DNA from: a virus | Lineage: Duplodnaviria; Caudoviricetes | IMG/VR virus record: IMGVR_UViG_3300028392_002123 | Reading direction: 5' to 3' (one strand) | DNA: 64,000 bases | The notes under the pieces: generated by a model | The model's database searches: none | The model's input: only the letters and a program-made list of their open reading frames with translations | What the model was told of the DNA's origin: nothing | Shown here: positions 29,187 to 46,791 of the stretch, piece by piece | How the letters are laid out: each line of letters begins with the position of its first letter | Position numbering within the stretch: the first letter of the stretch is position 1 | Made by a program: the position numbers and the translations under genes

Positions 29187-29537
29187 ATGGATAAAAAATT
29201 GGAAGAAGCACTGGATTTTAGTAACTTTAGATTTACACTTAACACCCGCAAACAAAATCTAAAACTGCGTATGAAAAGTATGCTGACTGTGGGCTATAAC
29301 AACACTATCTTTACAGCGACCATTGAATTAATAAATTTTTCAAAACTGGTACTGGACTCGGGTAATAAAGAATATGTGTTCATCGACGACAACGACAACC
29401 CTGTGATGATCAATGACATCGGCGATTTTCACGCTAGATTGTTGGGAGCATACACTACAGCAGCCAACGAATTTTACGTGGAAAACGAAAAATTAAAAAA
29501 ACTTAGATCTACAAGACAACTAGCAGGAATTAAATGA
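29187..29537 (+). CDS. Conserved hypothetical, possibly a tail-assembly chaperone-like protein
   Basis: LEEALDFSNFRFTL...LTVGYNNTIFTATIELINF...FIDDNDNPVMI; GGAG RBS; position just after the tail genes. Confidence 0.5.
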   Translation: MDKKLEEALDFSNFRFTLNTRKQNLKLRMKSMLTVGYNNTIFTATIELINFSKLVLDSGNKEYVFIDDNDNPVMINDIGDFHARLLGAYTTAANEFYVENEKLKKLRSTRQLAGIK

Positions 29538-39573: not shown

Positions 39574-40331
39574 TTGTTTCAGGAACACTACGTCATTTAG
39601 TCAATGCTAGCAGTAGCTGGACAATTCCCGGCGACTATTTTTTAGTCATTGATCAAAACATTTATACCACACCTGATTTAACAGTGGTAGGGGATAGCCT
39701 AGATATTATCTCTGAAAATATAAGGCACAGTCACGTTAAATTTAAAAGTATATTCATTTGTGTAGACAGTAACCTGCCCAAAGAAGTAAAACATCATTCC
39801 AGCATTAACATGATTAATAAATGGAAGTTGGCCTACTATAACATACTTCCGTATAACACTATTAATAACTATGAAAGAATTATTCTTTTACGTCCAGATT
39901 TATATCTATACAAACGGGCACCAACATTTAAGATGTTGGAAATAGTTCCTGAAAATAATACTATCTATTCAACTATCGGAATAACAACAACTGAAGTACC
40001 CGACATAGGCACAAGGGAAATAATGAATGATGTATTGCTGATGTGCAACCTGCAGACATTTTCTATATTGGCCAATGAATTTGGTCCGTATTACCTAGAA
40101 CGCTATGCCGAAACTCAAAATGGCGGCTATGAAATACACAGTATGCTGGCAAGATTTGTCAAAGAAAAAGGCATTGCCGTGATGCCACATATCGATAATT
40201 ATTTTGAATTCTCAGTATTAAGAAACAACAGCAGTGAATTATTTGTTAATGGAGTATTATTACCCACTGTTGATTATAATACGATCAGAGAAAGATCACG
40301 GGATTGGTGGAAGCAAGTACATGGAAAATAA
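39558..40331 (+). CDS. Glycosyltransferase-like protein, family B, copy 4 (divergent)
   Basis: AIIVSGTLRH, YERIILLRPDL, MNDVLLM. Confidence 0.45.
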   Translation: MSTAIIVSGTLRHLVNASSSWTIPGDYFLVIDQNIYTTPDLTVVGDSLDIISENIRHSHVKFKSIFICVDSNLPKEVKHHSSINMINKWKLAYYNILPYNTINNYERIILLRPDLYLYKRAPTFKMLEIVPENNTIYSTIGITTTEVPDIGTREIMNDVLLMCNLQTFSILANEFGPYYLERYAETQNGGYEIHSMLARFVKEKGIAVMPHIDNYFEFSVLRNNSSELFVNGVLLPTVDYNTIRERSRDWWKQVHGK

Positions 40332-41139
40332 AAAATTAGTTGTCTGCGGCGATAGTTTTGCTGTAGGAATAGGCTGTCATGATCTAGTCAATGAGCCCGT
40401 GGGTAGTTTAGTTGCCCGGGAGCTGAATAAACCTTTGATAAATTTAGCCAAAGGATCTAGTACAAATTTCAGTATATTCTTGCAGATGCAGTATGTTGCG
40501 GATAAACTTGCCAATGATGTGGACTTAGTTCTAGTGGGTAATACCAGCTATGACAGAGTAGAATGGTTTCCCTTGGACACAGATTTTACCGGAGTCAGTG
40601 ATATTACCAATGAGATGGTCAACTATCATGAATATCCGCCTTACATGGAAAACAGCTATCATGTACACGGAAAAAATATATCACTGCCTAATCCCATGGC
40701 CGCTGACCCTGACTATTCTGGAGAAATGTTCACTGAGAATTACATGGGAGTCATCGACTACTGGGAAACTTATGGTAAAAAGAATCAAATAACCGAATAT
40801 TATAAAAGATTTGAAAACGAACCAAAAGCTCGAATGAACACGCTTTACAATTATGCTACTACTATACATGAAGCACGAATCAATCGCATATATAGTATAG
40901 GAGTATTAGCCATGGGTCATCAACGATTAAAACGACAGGGTATTAATCACTTAATTTTTAGTCAAGAACTTGAAGCCTATGCAAAATATATAGATAGAGA
41001 AAATCTAGTGGATATTAGTTGGGGGCAACTAAGTTTGGATTACCCAGATGATTTGCCAACTTGGCATACCAATGCAGAAGGGCATTGTGTGGCACGTGAT
41101 AAAGTTATGGCAAAGTTAAAAGAAAATGGATGGATATAA
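40321..41139 (+). CDS. SGNH/GDSL-like protein (start revised to ATG 40321)
   Basis: VCGDSFAVG, NLAKGSSTN, TWHTNAEGH. Confidence 0.65.
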   Translation: MENKKLVVCGDSFAVGIGCHDLVNEPVGSLVARELNKPLINLAKGSSTNFSIFLQMQYVADKLANDVDLVLVGNTSYDRVEWFPLDTDFTGVSDITNEMVNYHEYPPYMENSYHVHGKNISLPNPMAADPDYSGEMFTENYMGVIDYWETYGKKNQITEYYKRFENEPKARMNTLYNYATTIHEARINRIYSIGVLAMGHQRLKRQGINHLIFSQELEAYAKYIDRENLVDISWGQLSLDYPDDLPTWHTNAEGHCVARDKVMAKLKENGWI

Positions 41140-41579
41140 TGGAAATTAAAAAAGTCAATAAACACTGGGGCTATGAGTTATGGATTGCCGATGGGGTTAG
41201 AACACCCTACGCATCAAAACGCATATTGTTCAAAGCAGGGAATAGAACCAGTTTACAAGTTCATGAACACAAGTTTGAAACTAATTATGTACTCAGCGGC
41301 ACTGGCGTTCTGCATCGCAGTAAGGATCCCTTAAACATAGAACAATTTTTGGCAAACGGCATGACATCAACTCAGGTAGAAGAATATGAAGCAACATTCG
41401 AAGTCATTGAATTAAAAGAAGGTGTTGTATTTGATGTGCATCCTGGCTATGTACACAGAGTTATAGCTACCACGGATTTAGAATTCATGGAAACAAGTAC
41501 AACAGAACTTGATGATGTTATTAGACTGCAAGATGATCAAGGTCGCACACACGGAAGAATCAGCTACGAACATGGGTAA
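41130..41579 (+). CDS. Cupin-fold sugar isomerase-like protein (mannose-6-phosphate isomerase type)
   Basis: KHWGYELW, TSLQVHEHKFETNYVLSG, PGYVHRV, ETST.ELDDVIRLQD..GR. Confidence 0.75.
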   Translation: MDIMEIKKVNKHWGYELWIADGVRTPYASKRILFKAGNRTSLQVHEHKFETNYVLSGTGVLHRSKDPLNIEQFLANGMTSTQVEEYEATFEVIELKEGVVFDVHPGYVHRVIATTDLEFMETSTTELDDVIRLQDDQGRTHGRISYEHG

Positions 41580-43101
41580 TACTGTTATTATACCCACTGC
41601 TGGTCTGGGCAGTAGAATGGGAAACTATACTAAAAATCTTAATAAAGCATTATTGCCTTACAAGGACAAGCCAGTACTGGCGCATATAATTGACAATTTT
41701 CCCCGAGATAGTAAATTTATTATACCAGTGGGTCATTTAAAAGAACAGATTATAGATTTCTGTGGTGTAGCTTACAGTGACAGGGACATTGAATTTATTC
41801 ACGTCGACGACTGGACCAGTGCTAAGTCCGGCACGGGTTATACGTTATTACAATGTAAAGATAAAATAACTTCACCATTTTGGTATGTGCCCTGCGATAC
41901 ATACTTTGATCAGCCTATAATAGACAAAGTCAGAGACAAGGACTGTTATTTTGTTAAGTCAGTGCCTGAACAAGACACACATTTATACACGATGTTTGAT
42001 CAAAATAATAGTTTCTACGTACACGACATTAAATTTAAAAAAACAACTCCTGAAACATGGCGAGCATTTACTGGCCTAATGTATATCAATGACTATGCTG
42101 ATTTCTTCAATAGCCTGGAGCAAAGCAACAGCAATGAGTTTATAGGAATTATTAAACTAGGCAGCGACACAGCTAGCTTGAATACTTGGTTGGACTTTGG
42201 TAACCCCACAATATATCAAACTGAATTAAGTAAGAGTCAAAAGTTTGATTTTACTAAAAAAGACGAAGTCACTTATATATGTAATAATCGCGTAGTTAAA
42301 TGGTGGCTAGACACCACAGTGGCCAAGAAGAAATATGATAAAGTTCTGGCCAATCCCCATGTATTTCCCAATAACTGTACGCACAGCGGCAATTATATGG
42401 CCTATGATTTCTTTCCGGGTAAAACATTATATGAATTTAATAACCCAGTGGCATTCAATGAATTACTTAATTGGCTGGAAACAAATGTATGGCAGGATGT
42501 AGATGCTGATATACACACAGCCAGTATTGAATTTTATCGAACAAAAAGTCTAGCACGTATTAATAAGTTTTTAGAAAAGTATCCAGGTTTAAAACCTGTG
42601 ACTATTATAGATGGAGTGGAAGTCAAAGACTACAGTTATTACCTAGATAAAATAGACTGGGAATACTTGGCCACAGTTACTCGCCCTGGATTCCTGCACG
42701 GAGATCTACAATTTGATAATATTGTTATCAGCGACAGTGGCGAGTTTAAAATCATTGACTGGCGTCATGAGTTTGCAGGCCTAGTCGAATACGGCGATAT
42801 ATACTATGACCTAGCTAAAATGGCCGGCGGATTAATTATCAATTATGCTAATATTAAAAATCATAATTTTAACATAGAAATTGATAGTGGCATAGTTACA
42901 TTAAGTATACCTAATATTGACCATATTACAGTATATCAAGACAGACTAAAGAAATATATACTAGCCAACAATCTGGACTACAATAAAGTTAGACAGTTAA
43001 TTCCTGTTATTTTTTGGAACATGGCACCTTTGCACACAGCACCATTTGATATATTCCTATGGTACCTAGGCATTAAATTATTTGCGGAGTTAGAACAATG
43101 A
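41572..43101 (+). CDS. Bifunctional nucleotidyltransferase plus APH/choline-kinase-like phosphotransferase (start revised to ATG 41572)
   Basis: N-terminal VIIPTAGLGSRMG...KALLP (NTP transferase); C-terminal LHGDLQFDNI and KIIDWR (kinase motifs). Confidence 0.85.
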   Translation: MGNTVIIPTAGLGSRMGNYTKNLNKALLPYKDKPVLAHIIDNFPRDSKFIIPVGHLKEQIIDFCGVAYSDRDIEFIHVDDWTSAKSGTGYTLLQCKDKITSPFWYVPCDTYFDQPIIDKVRDKDCYFVKSVPEQDTHLYTMFDQNNSFYVHDIKFKKTTPETWRAFTGLMYINDYADFFNSLEQSNSNEFIGIIKLGSDTASLNTWLDFGNPTIYQTELSKSQKFDFTKKDEVTYICNNRVVKWWLDTTVAKKKYDKVLANPHVFPNNCTHSGNYMAYDFFPGKTLYEFNNPVAFNELLNWLETNVWQDVDADIHTASIEFYRTKSLARINKFLEKYPGLKPVTIIDGVEVKDYSYYLDKIDWEYLATVTRPGFLHGDLQFDNIVISDSGEFKIIDWRHEFAGLVEYGDIYYDLAKMAGGLIINYANIKNHNFNIEIDSGIVTLSIPNIDHITVYQDRLKKYILANNLDYNKVRQLIPVIFWNMAPLHTAPFDIFLWYLGIKLFAELEQ

Positions 43102-43427
43102 ATACTGCTCAACTAGCAATACGTTATTTTAAAGCATTTGCCGAAAAAGATCTAGGTTCCTTGGATGTACTCCTAGCAGACGACATAGTATTAACAGATT
43201 GGGATGGCCAGGCCATTGGTAAAGAAGCAGTTTTAAAATTCTGCGAGACTTTATTCAAAAGCGTGGGACGGCTAAATGTTGACATTGAAAAAATTGCCAT
43301 CGGGCAGGATACTGTCATGGCTGAATTGGGAATAGCCATAAACGGTGCCAATAAAATACATGTTGTCGATGTACTGGACTATGATCAAGACAAAAAAATT
43401 AAAAGAATCAGAGCTTATAAAAGATGA
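43098..43427 (+). CDS. SnoaL/NTF2-like protein
   Basis: YFKAFAEKDL..LD.LLADDI.LTDWD...GKEAV...VVDVLDY...KIKRIRAY. Confidence 0.75.
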   Translation: MNTAQLAIRYFKAFAEKDLGSLDVLLADDIVLTDWDGQAIGKEAVLKFCETLFKSVGRLNVDIEKIAIGQDTVMAELGIAINGANKIHVVDVLDYDQDKKIKRIRAYKR

Positions 43428-44146
43428 AAAAATATATAAGTCTTAGCAAGTATCCCGGCCGGCAGGGCTTATATTATTACACAGAATTCTTTAATAGAAT
43501 GAAAATAGATGCTGTTTACCAACCAATTGGCACAGATAATCTCCGAGAAGAACTGCAACGAGCGCGAGACGAAAATGTTGCAGGCATCAGTGTTAGCATG
43601 CCATTTAAACAAGAAGTAATACAGTATCTGGATCATGCAGATGCCAGCGTGTTAGCATATGAAACTTGTAATACTGTTGTTAATGTAAACAATCAGTGGC
43701 ATGGTTATAACTGTGACTACGCAGGCGCACAACGAGTATTGCAGGGAATACTATTAGAAGATAGTGTAACTATACTTGGTGCTGGCAGTATGGGATCAAT
43801 GATTTTTAAAATGATCAAGCATAATGCTAGATTGGTATCTCCTAGATTATCAAATTGGCAAGATCGGCACCAACCTGCCAGTGTAATAATTAATTGTACT
43901 AATCAAGGCACAGTTAGTACAGCGAGTCCCTTGGATTATATACCAAAAGAATGTCGAATGATCATTGATTTAACTGTCAATGACTGTGAACTAGGTCAGC
44001 AAGCCGCGATTGCAGGTGTTAAATATGTGTCTGGACAAGAATTTTACAAGTATCAATTTATGGATCAGTTTAACAAGTATACAGGTAAAATTATTAATTC
44101 CACAGATTATGACTTAGTCAGATTGGCGAAAAATGAAAAGATTTAA
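43424..44146 (+). CDS. Shikimate dehydrogenase-like oxidoreductase, SdhL (HI0607)-type
   Basis: SLS..P..G N-terminus, VSMPFK (catalytic Lys), NTV, GYNCD (catalytic Asp), LGAGSMG Rossmann motif. Confidence 0.75.
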   Translation: MKKYISLSKYPGRQGLYYYTEFFNRMKIDAVYQPIGTDNLREELQRARDENVAGISVSMPFKQEVIQYLDHADASVLAYETCNTVVNVNNQWHGYNCDYAGAQRVLQGILLEDSVTILGAGSMGSMIFKMIKHNARLVSPRLSNWQDRHQPASVIINCTNQGTVSTASPLDYIPKECRMIIDLTVNDCELGQQAAIAGVKYVSGQEFYKYQFMDQFNKYTGKIINSTDYDLVRLAKNEKI

Positions 44147-45128
44147 ACTGGGCTTTGGCCCAATGAGTTCGGAAATTGTAGACATACTTTGTGGCTACAC
44201 AGAAGAAAAAAATTATCCGTTGATGATTATTGCTAGCCGAAATCAAGTTGACTATGATAGCGGCTATGTAAAAAATACTGTTCAGCTCAGTGAGCAGGTA
44301 CGTAGTTTTGATAGAAAAAATATATTACTCTGCAGAGATCACTGTGGTCCGTATTTTGCAGATCTAGACAGGGAATTAGATGTATCCGTGGCTGTTACAC
44401 GTTGCGAAGAAACTATTTCCTCTGACATACAAGCTGGATTTGATTTAATACACATAGATGTTAGTCGCATCAAAAAAGATCAATTAAAGTGGGCCAAACA
44501 TTTAATTGAATTTGCATTAAAATTAGAACCGACTATTAAATTAGAATTCGGCAGTGAAGATAATACAGGGGTCGATGTTAATAGTAGTATTGCACGTATC
44601 GATGATCAATTAGAGTTTTTAAAGCTATACAAAGATAACATAGTATTCTTTGTCAGCCAAACAGGTAGTCTTACCAAAGACGGACAAATTGGAAAATTTA
44701 ACATAAAACAAAATAAAAAAGTTTCCGAACAATTACATGAACATGGATATTTGTTCAAAGAACATAATGCAGATTATTTTACTCCTGCAGACATTGACAA
44801 AAGAGTCTCGGCAGGCATCGACTCACTTAACATTGCACCTCAACTAGGTAAGATACAAACAGATCTACTAACTGAAATGGCAGGCAACACAGAAGAATAT
44901 TCTAAGTTCGCCGACTTAGTTTATAGTAAACCAACTATATGGTCTAGATGGATGAGCAATGGTAATACAGACAAGGCCACAGCAGTCAGTGTCAGCGGTC
45001 ATTATCATTTTGCCAGCAAAGAATATCAACAAGCCGTGGCCATGATAGATGGACAAAAGTTTAACGAAGAACTTAAACAGCGTATATATGCACTAGTGGA
45101 TATGTACAGAACATTTGATCAGGAGTAA
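44133..45128 (+). CDS. GatZ/KbaZ-like protein (tagatose-bisphosphate aldolase non-catalytic / hexose-phosphate epimerase fold)
   Basis: LMIIASRNQVD, LCRDHCGP, GFDLIHIDVS, EHNADY, LNIAPQLG. Confidence 0.7.
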   Translation: MKRFKLGFGPMSSEIVDILCGYTEEKNYPLMIIASRNQVDYDSGYVKNTVQLSEQVRSFDRKNILLCRDHCGPYFADLDRELDVSVAVTRCEETISSDIQAGFDLIHIDVSRIKKDQLKWAKHLIEFALKLEPTIKLEFGSEDNTGVDVNSSIARIDDQLEFLKLYKDNIVFFVSQTGSLTKDGQIGKFNIKQNKKVSEQLHEHGYLFKEHNADYFTPADIDKRVSAGIDSLNIAPQLGKIQTDLLTEMAGNTEEYSKFADLVYSKPTIWSRWMSNGNTDKATAVSVSGHYHFASKEYQQAVAMIDGQKFNEELKQRIYALVDMYRTFDQE

Positions 45129-45130
45129 TT

Positions 45131-45322
45131 ATGTCTATATTAGATATGTTTTCTAAAAAAGAAGAACCTAAAAAAGAACAAGATTGGCTTGATAAGCAGG
45201 CCGACGAATTAACTGAAGCTTTCAATGATCCTCAGCTAACTGAAGAGGAACGTAAACATCAAGAGCTTCTTGCTAAACGGTTAGAAGAACTACGTAAACG
45301 AGATCCTTTTATCTACAAATGA
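45131..45322 (+). CDS. Small charged protein ending RDPFIYK, coupled to the carbamoyltransferase
   Basis: AGGAG RBS before ATG 45131; ATGA overlap with the carbamoyltransferase start. Confidence 0.7.
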   Translation: MSILDMFSKKEEPKKEQDWLDKQADELTEAFNDPQLTEEERKHQELLAKRLEELRKRDPFIYK

Positions 45323-46791
45323 ATATATGGGGAATTAGTGCCAACAGTCACGACGCGGCCGTCAGCGTTTGGCACGATAAAGAAATACAATTTGCCGCAC
45401 ACAGTGAACGTTATAGTGGAATAAAAAATGACGGGAATTTATGCGTCGGCGTCATCGAAGAAGCATACACACATGGCAAGCCTGATTTAATTGTTTGGTA
45501 TGAAAATCCATTAAAGAAAACAGCTAGACAATTTTATGCAGGTCAAGGTCTACGCTGGAAAGAAAATAATATTAGACAATATCTAGACAGCTATGGTCTA
45601 ACCCAAAGAGTTGTCTATGAACAACATCATAGAAGTCATGCGGCCGCAGGTTATTATACCAGTGGATTTAAAGATGCCACAGTGGTTGTCATTGATGCTA
45701 TTGGAGAGTTTGAAACATTGACAGTATGGCAAGGCCTAGGCAATGACTTAAAACAAGTTTACAGTCAAGGTTATCCCGACAGCCTGGGACTTTGGTTCAG
45801 TGCTATGACACAGCGTATTGGCTTAAAACCCAACGAAGAAGAATATATTTTAATGGGCATGGCCGCATATGGCGACCCCGAGAAATATAAACAGGATATC
45901 TACAATGATTTTTTTAAATCTATAGATGGACCTAATATCAAATTTAAACATAATTTACATAGAGGCTGTTTATGGTGGCGCCATGATTTATTAACGGACC
46001 AAGACTACTTTGACTTAGCGGCCGCGACACAGCGCATATACGAAGAACTATTGCAGGGAATAAGCCATTGGGCGAAAAGAAAATTCTCCAGCAATAATCT
46101 AGTACTCATGGGTGGCTGTGCTCTTAACTGTGTGGCTAATAGTAATATAACCGGAGACTGGGCCAATGTGTGGATCATGCCCAACCCCGGAGATGCAGGT
46201 AGTGCCATTGGCGCAGTGGCTTCTTATATCAGCGAACATGTTACTTGGCCAGGTGCATACCTTGGCACAAACATGGGCGACAAGTATCCAGTTGATGAAA
46301 CCATTGATATACTTACAAAAGATAAAATTGTAGGTGTTGCCACAGGCTGTGCAGAATTTGGTCCTAGAGCACTGGGGCATCGCAGTTTATTAGCAGATCC
46401 ACGCGGACCTGAAATCAAAGATACAGTTAATGCAATTAAACGTAGACAACAGTTTAGACCATTTGCACCGGCAATCCTGGAAGAACACGTACACGAATAC
46501 TTCGACATGCCTACGGGAATAACTGCCAGTCCCTTTATGCAGTTTGTGGCCAAGTGTAAAAAACCCACAGAGTTTCCTGCAATCATACATGCAGACGGAA
46601 CTAGTAGGGTTCAAACTGTGAGTAAAACAGACAGTCCGGGATTCCGTAAATTGCTGGAAGATTGGCATGCTCTAACAGGATGTCCTATGTTGTTAAACAC
46701 CAGCTTGAACATCAAAGGCCAGCCCATGGTTAATAATTTGGCAGATGCGTCTGCATTTACTAGTAAATATAATGTTCCGGTGCTGACCTAA
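45319..46791 (+). CDS. O-carbamoyltransferase, NodU/CmcH/TobZ family
   Basis: SHDAAV, ERYSGIK, HHRSHAA, VIDAIGE, MGMAAYG, GGCALNCVAN, GDAG, EFGPRALGHRS, FRPFAP, HADGTSRVQTV, LLNTSLN. Confidence 0.95.
   Translation: MNIWGISANSHDAAVSVWHDKEIQFAAHSERYSGIKNDGNLCVGVIEEAYTHGKPDLIVWYENPLKKTARQFYAGQGLRWKENNIRQYLDSYGLTQRVVYEQHHRSHAAAGYYTSGFKDATVVVIDAIGEFETLTVWQGLGNDLKQVYSQGYPDSLGLWFSAMTQRIGLKPNEEEYILMGMAAYGDPEKYKQDIYNDFFKSIDGPNIKFKHNLHRGCLWWRHDLLTDQDYFDLAAATQRIYEELLQGISHWAKRKFSSNNLVLMGGCALNCVANSNITGDWANVWIMPNPGDAGSAIGAVASYISEHVTWPGAYLGTNMGDKYPVDETIDILTKDKIVGVATGCAEFGPRALGHRSLLADPRGPEIKDTVNAIKRRQQFRPFAPAILEEHVHEYFDMPTGITASPFMQFVAKCKKPTEFPAIIHADGTSRVQTVSKTDSPGFRKLLEDWHALTGCPMLLNTSLNIKGQPMVNNLADASAFTSKYNVPVLT

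Follow-up and report, generated by a model that had tools for sequence, protein, structure and literature searches.

The five overlapping genes at positions 41130-45128 of the 64,000-nucleotide stretch of viral DNA analysed here (hereafter the window) probably represent the copy, carried by an uncultured jumbo phage from a lake, of a mobile, widespread and uncharacterised cassette, which would start from a central ketose phosphate and, with no phosphomutase involved, lead to a rare sugar in nucleotide-activated form. The basis for this reading is formed by family assignments and gene linkage, from which we infer every chemical step of the pathway proposed below.

The listing of open reading frames has all five genes on the + strand and translationally coupled, in agreement with the initial annotation, which had described five overlapping genes. 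The first one (41130..41579; 149 aa) encodes a PMI type-II-like cupin, predicted to be a metal-dependent aldose/ketose-phosphate isomerase, and is followed by a fusion gene (41572..43101; 509 aa) for a predicted bifunctional protein consisting of an N-terminal nucleotidyltransferase and a C-terminal APH-fold kinase. Then come a SnoaL_2/ketosteroid-isomerase-like gene (43098..43427; 109 aa) with a predicted accessory step, an SdhL-like gene (43424..44146; 240 aa) for a predicted NAD(P)-dependent oxidoreductase of the shikimate-dehydrogenase family, and a short GatZ/KbaZ-like gene (44133..45128; 331 aa), the product of which has the class-II-aldolase fold and is predicted to be a Zn-dependent ketose-phosphate C4 epimerase or aldolase. 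The fusion gene was listed by the ORF tool as 41509-43101 with a TTG start at 41509; its start is, however, most likely the ATG at 41572, since the homologues are ~510 aa long and the sequence reads ...ACGAACATGGGTAA..., in which the gene overlaps the cupin stop by 8 nt. With this start, the overlaps between the successive genes are 8, 4, 4 and 14 nt. As judged from the sequences, the catalytic residues are kept in all five proteins.

Concerning the immediate surroundings, the gene directly upstream (40234-41139) groups with virus-only clusters, partly DUF6071. Downstream there is a small ORF on the + strand (45131..45322; 63 aa), the sequence of which reads RKRDPFIYK at its end; it is a separate gene in the window, but in several relatives it extends the GatZ-like protein at the C-terminus, its equivalent lying in frame behind the GatZ-like domain in loci L005, L020, L024 and L034. 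The next gene on the same strand (45319..46791), encoding a carbamoyltransferase of the NodU/CmcH type (PF16861 and PF02543 in Pfam; phrog_1601 in PHROGs), is an associated tailoring gene outside the five; it comes after the cassette in most related viral loci and is found within ≤8 kb of it in 8 of the 80 cellular loci described below.

The gene set is conserved far beyond chance. All 36 related IMG/VR loci that were fetched, with fusion-protein identities of 35-90%, keep the cassette, or as much of it as a short contig has room for. In cellular genomes the fusion protein matched 114 bacterial/archaeal genome stretches, from which 80 loci were kept; the partners present there are the GatZ-like protein (61-70 loci), the cupin (57) and a KdsC-like phosphatase (51). 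The carriers cover Bdellovibrionota, Planctomycetota, Verrucomicrobiota, Legionella, Pelagibacteraceae and SAR86, as well as Thaumarchaeota and many CPR and DPANN lineages. Several parts occur also as fused forms—the cupin with the nucleotidyltransferase-kinase (L036, L040, L059), the latter with the GatZ-like protein (L073, L074), and the SnoaL-like protein behind the KdsC-like phosphatase (cellular loci L048 and L055)—and the parts are thus linked to one another. At the DNA level the cassette matched no deposited phage, it is unmentioned in the jumbo-phage surveys consulted, and a literature search on GatZ and phage returned nothing relevant.

The cellular neighbours of the cassette are GT2 and GT4 proteins, the Wzx flippase, SDR epimerase/dehydratases and methyltransferases. 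The search for co-occurrence in bacterial glycan loci, suggested along with the initial annotation, thus revealed that the set recurs in cellular surface-glycan loci, and these shared loci bear out the view that the five genes form one pathway for a nucleotide-activated carbohydrate. That the five genes serve instead as auxiliary metabolic genes, redirecting the host catabolism of hexose, tagatose or galactitol phosphate for energy during infection, with no glycan donor formed, is highly improbable. GatZ-family proteins and polyol-phosphate dehydrogenases do work in galactitol/tagatose catabolism; the cellular context is, however, glycan assembly, a kinase-fused nucleotidyltransferase has no catabolic role, and there is no transporter or PTS component in the cluster.

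The window cupin belongs to the families Cupin_2/MannoseP_isomer and scores 24.1 bits against PF01050 in Pfam (cut-off 23.6), its counterparts reaching 103 bits in the marine virus AG-345-E15 (L037) and 32.6 in L036. Its Gln/His/Glu/His metal site (Q43, H45, E50 and H109) is 100% conserved in 60 sequences, in which a C-terminal DDV.R..D motif is strongly conserved, too. The SnoaL-like protein matches PF12680 with 47.7 bits and the KSI-related NCBIfam model TIGR02096, with Y10, D34 and D91 conserved in 32 sequences. It is an accessory of the cassette, since 7 viral loci lack the gene and no more than ~7 of the 80 cellular ones have it.

The GatZ-like protein scores 49.6 bits against PF08013 (cut-off 26.7), aligned over residues 22-116 only, and its profile matches the structures 3txv and 2fiq (E-values of 2e-9 and 6e-9, respectively), the alignment running through the DHxGP, HxD and EHxxDY motifs. 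Characterised GatZ-family proteins are C4 epimerases interconverting F6P and T6P, with the active site of the E. coli enzyme formed by Asp87, His88, Glu171 and His257 (PMC11907403); the initial annotation had stated such an activity for the GatZ/KbaZ fold, in accordance with that study, and the phage protein keeps the active-site Asp-His, Glu and His. In 67 sequences, D69/H70, H107/D109, E138 and H211 are 97-100% conserved, E138 being invariant, and D69-H70 and H211 align with the GatZ DH and H257 motifs. The Atlas model (pTM 0.90) superimposes with a TM of 0.87 on a bacterial GatZ-PfkB fusion. In contrast to the GatZ/KbaZ epimerases, with which it thus shares the family, the active-site residues and the fold, the window protein is ~90 residues shorter—331 aa versus ~420 aa of the full-length architecture—and its match to the Pfam model is limited to the first ~100 residues; the short family, of about 310-330 aa, forms separate virus-dominated clusters.

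The dehydrogenase scores 50.5 bits against PF08501 (Shikimate_dh_N) in Pfam, and both the S-L-S..P and SMPFK motifs, pointed out in the initial annotation, are present in its sequence. The more specific assignment to SdhL is upheld by the family profile, which among the PDB structures matches HI0607 (1npy) best, with 130.6 bits over the full length, followed by an AroE with 106.6, the margin being narrower for the single sequence (55.2 versus 52.5 bits); it falls short at the level of the equivalog model NF009202 (89.8 bits, cut-off 306). In NCBIfam, the best matches come from AroE and PRK12550 models, each of them far under its cut-off, as illustrated by 91.0 bits against the AroE model NF001319 (cut-off 252). 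The protein possesses the Lys/Asp catalytic dyad (K62/D98) along with the substrate-site Ser, Asn, Thr and Gln; in 56 sequences, S6, K62, N83, T84, D98, G119 and G121 are 100% and Q215 is 98% conserved. The profile also matches the 5-ketofructose reductase (PDB 7cok), a member of the SDH family able to reduce a keto-sugar (PMC7954740). Both HI0607 SdhL and 7cok share with the window protein the dyad and the S-x-S..P and SMPFK motifs; the window protein differs from them by a shorter Rossmann domain (240 aa) and by being encoded inside a sugar-activation cassette.

The fusion protein contains the NTP_transf_3 and APH domains (Pfam), and its motifs AGLGSRM, HGDLQFDN and IDWR are invariant across the homologues. 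An N-terminal nucleotidyltransferase joined to a C-terminal APH-fold kinase, with motifs intact in both, is the architecture of AfhE. The kinase domain aligns with the RB69 gp52 kinase (hhalign 95.5%, E-value 1.4e-8, 157 columns) and the nucleotidyltransferase domain with RB69 gp53 (hhalign 67%, E-value 5e-5), although no RB69-type record was retrieved by tblastn of the fusion against phages. In the plasmid collection, no full-length relative of the fusion from a cultured organism was found, only partial matches to the nucleotidyltransferase domain (AglF, GlmU) or to the kinase tail. At the sequence level, the kinase domain matched none of the solved kinases, and the fold search with the isolated domain returned a generic APH fold, with ethanolamine/choline kinases, APH(2''), NahK, LicA and MTR kinase all at a TM of ~0.45-0.56; the search does not discriminate between sugar and amino-alcohol kinases.

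In the AlphaFold model (pLDDT 91), the fold of the nucleotidyltransferase domain is nearest to LicC (TMt 0.77-0.79) and CTP:inositol-1-phosphate cytidylyltransferase (IPCT; 0.77), sugar-1-P nucleotidyltransferases giving 0.6-0.73. As these two are enzymes for phospho-alcohols, the fold counts against a rare sugar as the product and favours an NDP-activated polyol or polyol phosphate, in essence the NDP-alditol of the initial annotation, made by the logic of LicA/LicC or of CDP-2-glycerol (Gtp1-3). There, the reductase would convert a ketose to an alditol, the kinase would act on a non-anomeric hydroxyl and the LicC-like transferase would yield a CDP-alditol, a donor for the addition of polyol phosphate to a glycan. 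The reductase being integral and replaceable in the cassette fits this scheme, as does the kinase being as similar to choline/ethanolamine kinases as to sugar kinases; in S. pneumoniae, Gtp1, Gtp3 and Gtp2 reportedly serve as the reductase, kinase and cytidylyltransferase of CDP-2-glycerol synthesis, which was counted in its favour. We nevertheless consider it unlikely. An integral PMI-type isomerase and a phosphatase would be left without a role, and the kinase domain shows a probable relationship to the anomeric kinase of the AfhE type. The profile of the nucleotidyltransferase matches Glc-1-P thymidylyltransferase, GalU, AglF and HddC, i.e. sugar-1-phosphate transferases, at least as well as LicC. 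Moreover, no LicD-, TagF- or CDP-alcohol-transferase-like domain was seen in the 34 proteins of the cluster or in the common cellular neighbours. The LicA/LicC analogy drawn in the initial annotation is therefore, given the probable kinase relationship and the profile matches, weaker than that to AfhE/AfhF.

Two steps of the cassette are carried out by alternative enzymes in different loci. The SdhL-like protein, found in 50-54 of the 80 cellular loci and in 48 by the count that was set against the SDR, is replaced by a FabG-like SDR in 16, the two never being seen in one locus among the 80. As to the phosphatase, 51 of the 80 cellular loci have a KdsC-like enzyme; viral loci L036 and L037 have a mini-HAD of the same size as RB69 gp51 and weakly similar to it (E-value 0.002), and a HAD occurs also in L015/16/26/27. 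Because of this non-orthologous displacement, both the reductase and the phosphatase are regarded as integral steps. The phosphatase is, however, missing from the window copy: no HAD phosphatase is recognisable within the window, so that the gene set lacks the companion enzyme of the AfhE type, and no KdsC-like phosphatase was found in the contigs of five relatives, which are 15-66% complete. The SnoaL-like protein and a HAD phosphatase occur together in none of the viral loci fetched. The initial annotation had noted neither the missing phosphatase nor the accessory nature of the SnoaL-like protein.

The route to the nucleotide-activated rare sugar could then proceed in six steps. Using Zn-dependent retro-aldol/aldol chemistry, the GatZ-like enzyme would change the C4 configuration of a ketose phosphate, e.g. 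from fructose-6-P to tagatose-6-P, or alternatively it would act as an aldolase and assemble the ketose. A carbonyl of that intermediate would be reduced or oxidised by the SdhL-like NAD(P)-dependent oxidoreductase, the KSI-like SnoaL protein, where present, possibly catalysing an isomerisation or epimerisation next to a carbonyl. The PMI-type cupin would turn the ketose phosphate into an aldose phosphate, the APH-fold domain would phosphorylate the anomeric hydroxyl to yield a 1,n-bisphosphate, and a HAD phosphatase—KdsC-like in cells and some phages, AfhF-like in others, and in the window phage presumably supplied from elsewhere in the phage or by the host—would remove the distal phosphate. 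Finally, the N-terminal nucleotidyltransferase domain would convert the sugar 1-phosphate to the NDP-sugar. Given the PMI-type isomerase and, in most relatives, the HAD phosphatase, an NDP-aldose is a more likely product than the NDP-ketose or NDP-alditol originally envisaged. It should be pointed out that an aldose could be reached by isomerase and epimerase steps alone, a scheme with no evident need for net redox, which counts against this explanation. A cyclitol/carbasugar reading was dropped, a sugar-phosphate cyclase (DHQS-like) being absent in or near the cassette in every lineage.

With regard to the destination of the sugar, the flanking proteins had been described as GT-like, a view that finds no backing in Pfam, PHROGs or hhalign: the 18 unknown flanking families have no Pfam/PHROG glycosyltransferase match and reach probabilities of <10% in hhalign against GT2/GT4 alignments from the cellular loci. 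The 34-kb cluster around the cassette comes after the virion genes in the window, and no membrane segment was found in any of its 34 proteins. Since the cluster is thus all soluble and so placed, transfer of the sugar probably takes place in the cytoplasm, onto a virion protein or, with lower probability, onto DNA, and not onto an exported lipid-linked glycan. Late timing is unsupported, since the T4-type late promoter TATAAATA was seen twice, below the 8.7 occurrences expected by chance. That the same pathway and product serve DNA hypermodification, with the NDP-sugar used for a glycosylated base as in the arabinosyl-5-hydroxycytosine phages, seems quite improbable. The solubility of all cluster proteins would suit it, and AfhE/AfhF, the only characterised relative of the activation module, serves DNA glycosylation (PMC13326640). 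The cellular cassettes, however, sit in Wzx/GT surface-glycan loci, the cassette adjoins fibre or other virion genes in some phage lineages, and the 34-kb cluster is devoid of genes for base-modifying enzymes such as a thymidylate-synthase homologue or DpdA.

In its widest form, our proposal is that the cassette represents an undescribed mutase-independent nucleotide-sugar route, absent so far from the pathway databases and based on a short GatZ-type C4 epimerase/aldolase and an SdhL-type keto-sugar-phosphate reductase, by which giant freshwater phages glycosylate their own virion proteins cytoplasmically; we put it forward tentatively, at somewhat less than an even chance. If true, the orphan SdhL family would gain its first physiological role, and one compact cassette, shared by many uncultured phages, CPR, DPANN, Pelagibacteraceae, SAR86, and Legionella-like and predatory bacteria, would make a sugar building block. 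With the product identified, both a new nucleotide sugar and a new logic of biosynthesis would be gained, the short GatZ-like and SdhL-like families would have a function, and the surface chemistry of unculturable organisms would be explained in part. It would also become clear what large phages put on themselves or on their DNA, a matter of relevance to host recognition and to the evasion of defence.

Among the characterised systems, the phage route to UDP-arabinofuranose (AfhE and AfhF) comes nearest to the cassette, ahead of LicA/LicC. UDP-D-arabinofuranose is made there for DNA glycosylation by an arabinose-5-P isomerase, AfhE (RB69 gp52:53, DLP3 gp82), which combines a sugar-5-P 1-kinase with a UDP-sugar pyrophosphorylase, and AfhF, a small HAD phosphatase (RB69 gp51) (PMC13326640). 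The two have in common the small N-terminal nucleotidyltransferase with the C-terminal APH-fold kinase, and the logic of isomerase, anomeric kinase, HAD phosphatase and NDP-sugar. They differ in the isomerase, which is a PMI-type cupin in the cassette and a SIS-domain KdsD in the AfhE route, and in the two extra integral enzymes of the cassette, the GatZ-like one and the SdhL-like one or SDR; the families are, moreover, distant. In cells the cassette has a surface-glycan context, whereas the AfhE route is directed to DNA, and the cassette sugar is, as far as can be told, not arabinose. An APH-fold kinase feeding a small nucleotidyltransferase of the LicC/MurU type is shared by AmgK/MurU, LicA/LicC and the cassette; the former two, however, have free MurNAc/GlcNAc or choline as substrates and do without an isomerase, an epimerase, a reductase and a phosphatase. 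The proposed order of steps, from a ketose phosphate isomerase through an anomeric kinase and a HAD bisphosphate phosphatase to a nucleotidyltransferase, is the same as in the GDP-D-glycero-alpha-D-manno-heptose pathway (GmhA, HddA, GmhB, HddC), and the nucleotidyltransferase profile weakly matches HddC. All the parts are, however, non-orthologous—a cupin for SIS, APH for GHMP and a KdsC-like enzyme or mini-HAD for GmhB—and to this set of steps the cassette adds the epimerase/aldolase and the reductase.

The window originates from a large tailed phage. Its baseplate hub/lysozyme protein shares 34% identity with proteins of PA5oct, Atu_ph07 and related jumbo phages, and it also encodes giant structural proteins of 1067 aa and 2991 aa, a subtilase-bearing structural protein, an HNH endonuclease and an ATP-dependent ligase. 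From position 29534 to the window end, after the virion genes, there follows a cluster of 34 co-directional and mostly overlapping genes (29534-63679), in which some ten radical SAM enzymes stand beside DUF6071 proteins, a carbamoyltransferase and numerous proteins of unknown function. The cassette lies in the middle of this block and the ORF listing agrees with the initial annotation in showing five overlapping genes on the + strand (41130-45128). It should be noted that the full T4 late-promoter octamer TATAAATA is depleted rather than enriched, being present twice in the whole window (32155 and 62277) against 8.7 occurrences expected from shuffles. Concerning the gene directly upstream of the cassette (40234-41139), its start is probably at residue 30 (about 40321), and its product clusters with virus-only groups, one of which partly bears DUF6071, as do 37125 and 38111; this suggests a run of DUF6071-like paralogues ahead of the cassette.

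The first gene of the cassette encodes a cupin matching the C-terminal domain of type II phosphomannose isomerase (PMI), and the second a fusion of an NTP_transf_3 nucleotidyltransferase with an APH-fold kinase, the most likely start of which is the ATG at 41572, since the relatives are ~510 aa long and a start there gives an 8-nt overlap with the cupin stop. These are followed by genes for a SnoaL_2 protein, a protein of the shikimate dehydrogenase family and a short GatZ/KbaZ-like protein. Downstream of the last one, a 63-aa ORF (45131-45322) ending with RKRDPFIYK overlaps with its stop the carbamoyltransferase start. This ORF, separate in the window, forms an in-frame C-terminal extension of the GatZ-like protein in several relatives—L005:12645-13712, L020:3158-4243, L024:12558-13673 and L034:12272-13369—and therefore may physically couple the GatZ-like enzyme and the carbamoyltransferase.

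Judged from their sequences, all five enzymes appear intact. The cupin retains the Gln/His/Glu/His metal site together with the PMI-type C-terminal acidic motif, and the fusion protein preserves AGLGSRM in its transferase domain as well as HGDLQFDN and IDWR in its kinase domain. In the SnoaL protein, a weak match to TIGR02096, the residues Y10, D34 and D91 are conserved and spaced as in the Tyr/Asp/Asp triad of ketosteroid isomerase (KSI). The GatZ-like residues D69-H70, H107/D109, E138 and H211, conserved at 97-100% in 67 sequences, fall on the motifs DHxGP, HxD and EAHxTDY when aligned to GatZ proteins of solved structure, and correspond to Asp87/His88/Glu171/His257 of the E. coli GatZ, the proposed base and Zn ligands of an enzyme epimerising fructose-6-P and tagatose-6-P (PMC11907403).

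As far as the dehydrogenase is concerned, the Lys/Asp dyad (K62, D98) is retained, as are S6, S58, N83, T84 and Q215 of the substrate site and the GxGxxG Rossmann motif. The profile of its family has its best match, by a clear margin and along the full length, in HI0607 SdhL, and the S-L-S..P and SMPFK motifs, put forward previously as the SdhL signature, are indeed common to both proteins; the protein itself scores below the NCBIfam cut-offs for SdhL and for AroE. The same profile also matches the 5-ketofructose reductase (PDB 7cok), an SDH-family enzyme reducing a keto-sugar (PMC7954740), so that a keto-sugar phosphate is a plausible substrate of the SdhL-like enzyme, and one with precedent.

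The 36 IMG/VR loci with a fusion-protein relative (35-90% identity) all retain the cassette neighbours or, on short contigs, as many of them as there is room for, the SnoaL gene being missing from seven loci. An insert of ~830 bp separates the NT-kinase and SnoaL genes in three loci (L013:11422-12258, L023:11596-12432 and L002:9065-9898). In the most distant viral locus, L036, the cupin is fused to the NT-kinase, and a HAD phosphatase of 116 aa, a radical SAM enzyme and a fusion of GT2 with a methyltransferase are encoded in addition. The marine virus AG-345-E15 (L037) has the HAD, cupin, NT-kinase and GatZ-like genes in succession, without an SdhL-like gene. A second sugar-activation module—a GHMP kinase, a second cupin and a stand-alone nucleotidyltransferase—is found downstream in the same virus (MH319741.1, 13309-15321), which also encodes a GDP-mannose-dehydratase-like SDR and a 2OG-Fe(II) oxygenase.

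In the cellular scan, based on one genome per prokaryotic species, 114 stretches matched the fusion protein over its full length with 31-38% identity. The carriers span Bdellovibrionota, Planctomycetota, Verrucomicrobiota, Elusimicrobiota, a Legionella MAG, Pelagibacteraceae and SAR86, as well as many CPR and DPANN lineages and a thaumarchaeon. Among the 80 cellular loci kept, the fusion gene is accompanied by the genes for the GatZ-like protein (61-70 loci), the cupin (57), the SdhL-like protein (50-54) and a KdsC-like HAD phosphatase (51), and the frequent neighbours are GT2 and GT4 glycosyltransferases, SDR epimerase/dehydratases, methyltransferases, B12-radical SAM enzymes and a Wzx-type flippase. 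The cellular carriers of the cassette are thus surface-glycan loci, where the initial annotation had proposed to look for it. In loci of the GATZ-(c9)-CUP-NTK type (L044, L046, L047, L050, L052, L057, L060, L089, L112 and others), the GatZ-like and cupin genes are separated by a gene for a ~274-aa protein family with no Pfam hit (cluster c9), of which neither the window nor the viral loci yielded a homologue.

The reductase is an integral yet replaceable part of the cassette: among the 76 loci whose fusion gene is intact, 48 possess the SdhL-like gene and 16 a FabG-like SDR, positioned between the GatZ-like gene and the cupin, while none has both. The phosphatase is replaceable, too, being KdsC-like in cells and in the viral loci L015, L016, L026 and L027, and a mini-HAD in L036 and L037. 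None of the viral loci fetched has SnoaL together with a HAD phosphatase; in two cellular loci (L048:10260-11291 and L055:3350-4243) a SnoaL-like domain is fused C-terminally to the KdsC-like one. Candidate fusions, all from MAGs and possibly assembly errors, join the cupin with the NT-kinase in L040:7290-9584 (Bdellovibrionales) and L059:7245-9548 (a deltaproteobacterial locus), and the NT-kinase with the GatZ-like protein in L073:7911-10817 (Methanosarcinales) and L074:7986-10697 (Myxococcaceae). In the maximum-likelihood tree computed for the fusion protein, the phage lineage of the window falls inside a clade of Bdellovibrionota, Planctomycetota, Verrucomicrobiota and Alphaproteobacteria, which has the CUP-NTK-SDH gene order of the window, and L036 with L037 in a CPR/DPANN clade. 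Since the phages thus occupy two separate clades (starred branches), the phage label changes at least twice, i.e. phages acquired the cassette on at least two occasions, the long phage branches leaving the exact sister groups unsure.

With regard to the acceptor, none of the 34 cluster proteins exhibits a membrane-type hydrophobic segment, so that the whole cluster is soluble, and, unlike in the cellular loci, it contains no flippase, polymerase or membrane-bound initiating transferase. The glycosyltransferase identity assigned earlier to the flanking proteins could not be confirmed for these unknowns. The solubility, the position of the cluster after the virion genes and the collagen-like tail fibre genes adjoining the cassette of L036 favour an acceptor in the cytoplasm, for which a virion protein is the simplest candidate and DNA, with AfhE as a precedent, the main alternative.

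What the data show are the families of the proteins, the conservation of their active sites, the gene linkage, the fusions and the displacement patterns; for the putative pathway, every chemical step and the order of the steps are inferred, and so would be any sugar and nucleotide assigned to it. The GatZ-like enzyme would epimerise C4 of a central ketose phosphate or build a ketose by aldol chemistry, the SdhL-like enzyme would perform the carbonyl redox step, with an optional enolisation beside a carbonyl by the KSI-like protein, and the cupin would convert the ketose phosphate to an aldose phosphate. The kinase domain would then phosphorylate the anomeric hydroxyl, a phosphatase would remove the distal phosphate, and the transferase domain would form the NDP-sugar. 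The proposed order leaves the need for a net redox step on the way to the aldose unaccounted for. In the lineage of the window, which has no recognisable phosphatase of its own, this step might be taken over by the host or by a gene located elsewhere in the phage genome, or it might be dispensable if the transferase accepts the bisphosphate.

No published description of the cassette was found in the literature search. The closest characterised system is the phage UDP-arabinofuranose route, which consists of an arabinose-5-P isomerase, the bifunctional AfhE—its C-terminal kinase yielding Araf-1,5-bisphosphate and its N-terminal part being a UDP-sugar pyrophosphorylase—and the HAD phosphatase AfhF, the RB69 counterparts being gp55, gp52:53 and gp51 (PMC13326640). 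The fusion-family profile matches the RB69 gp52 kinase with an hhalign probability of 95.5% (E 1.4e-8), both kinases having a common motif behind the catalytic loop (YGDIYYDLAK vs YGPKLYDEAK); the matches of the transferase profile to gp53 (67%) and of the L036 mini-HAD to gp51 (E 0.002) are weaker and weak, respectively. By predicted structure (pLDDT 91), the NT domain lies nearest to LicC and inositol-1-P cytidylyltransferase and only slightly farther from sugar-1-P transferases, and its sequence profile matches Glc-1-P thymidylyltransferase, LicC, GalU and HddC about equally; the kinase domain by itself is a generic APH fold without a clear nearest neighbour. Based on these comparisons, the activation half would work most like AfhE/AfhF or the GmhA-HddA-GmhB-HddC heptose route, and the cassette is best regarded as a nucleotide-sugar pathway in which two unusual enzymes at the front end are combined with an activation module of the AfhE-like type, the activation half being a distant relative of AfhE/AfhF rather than a member of a defined family.
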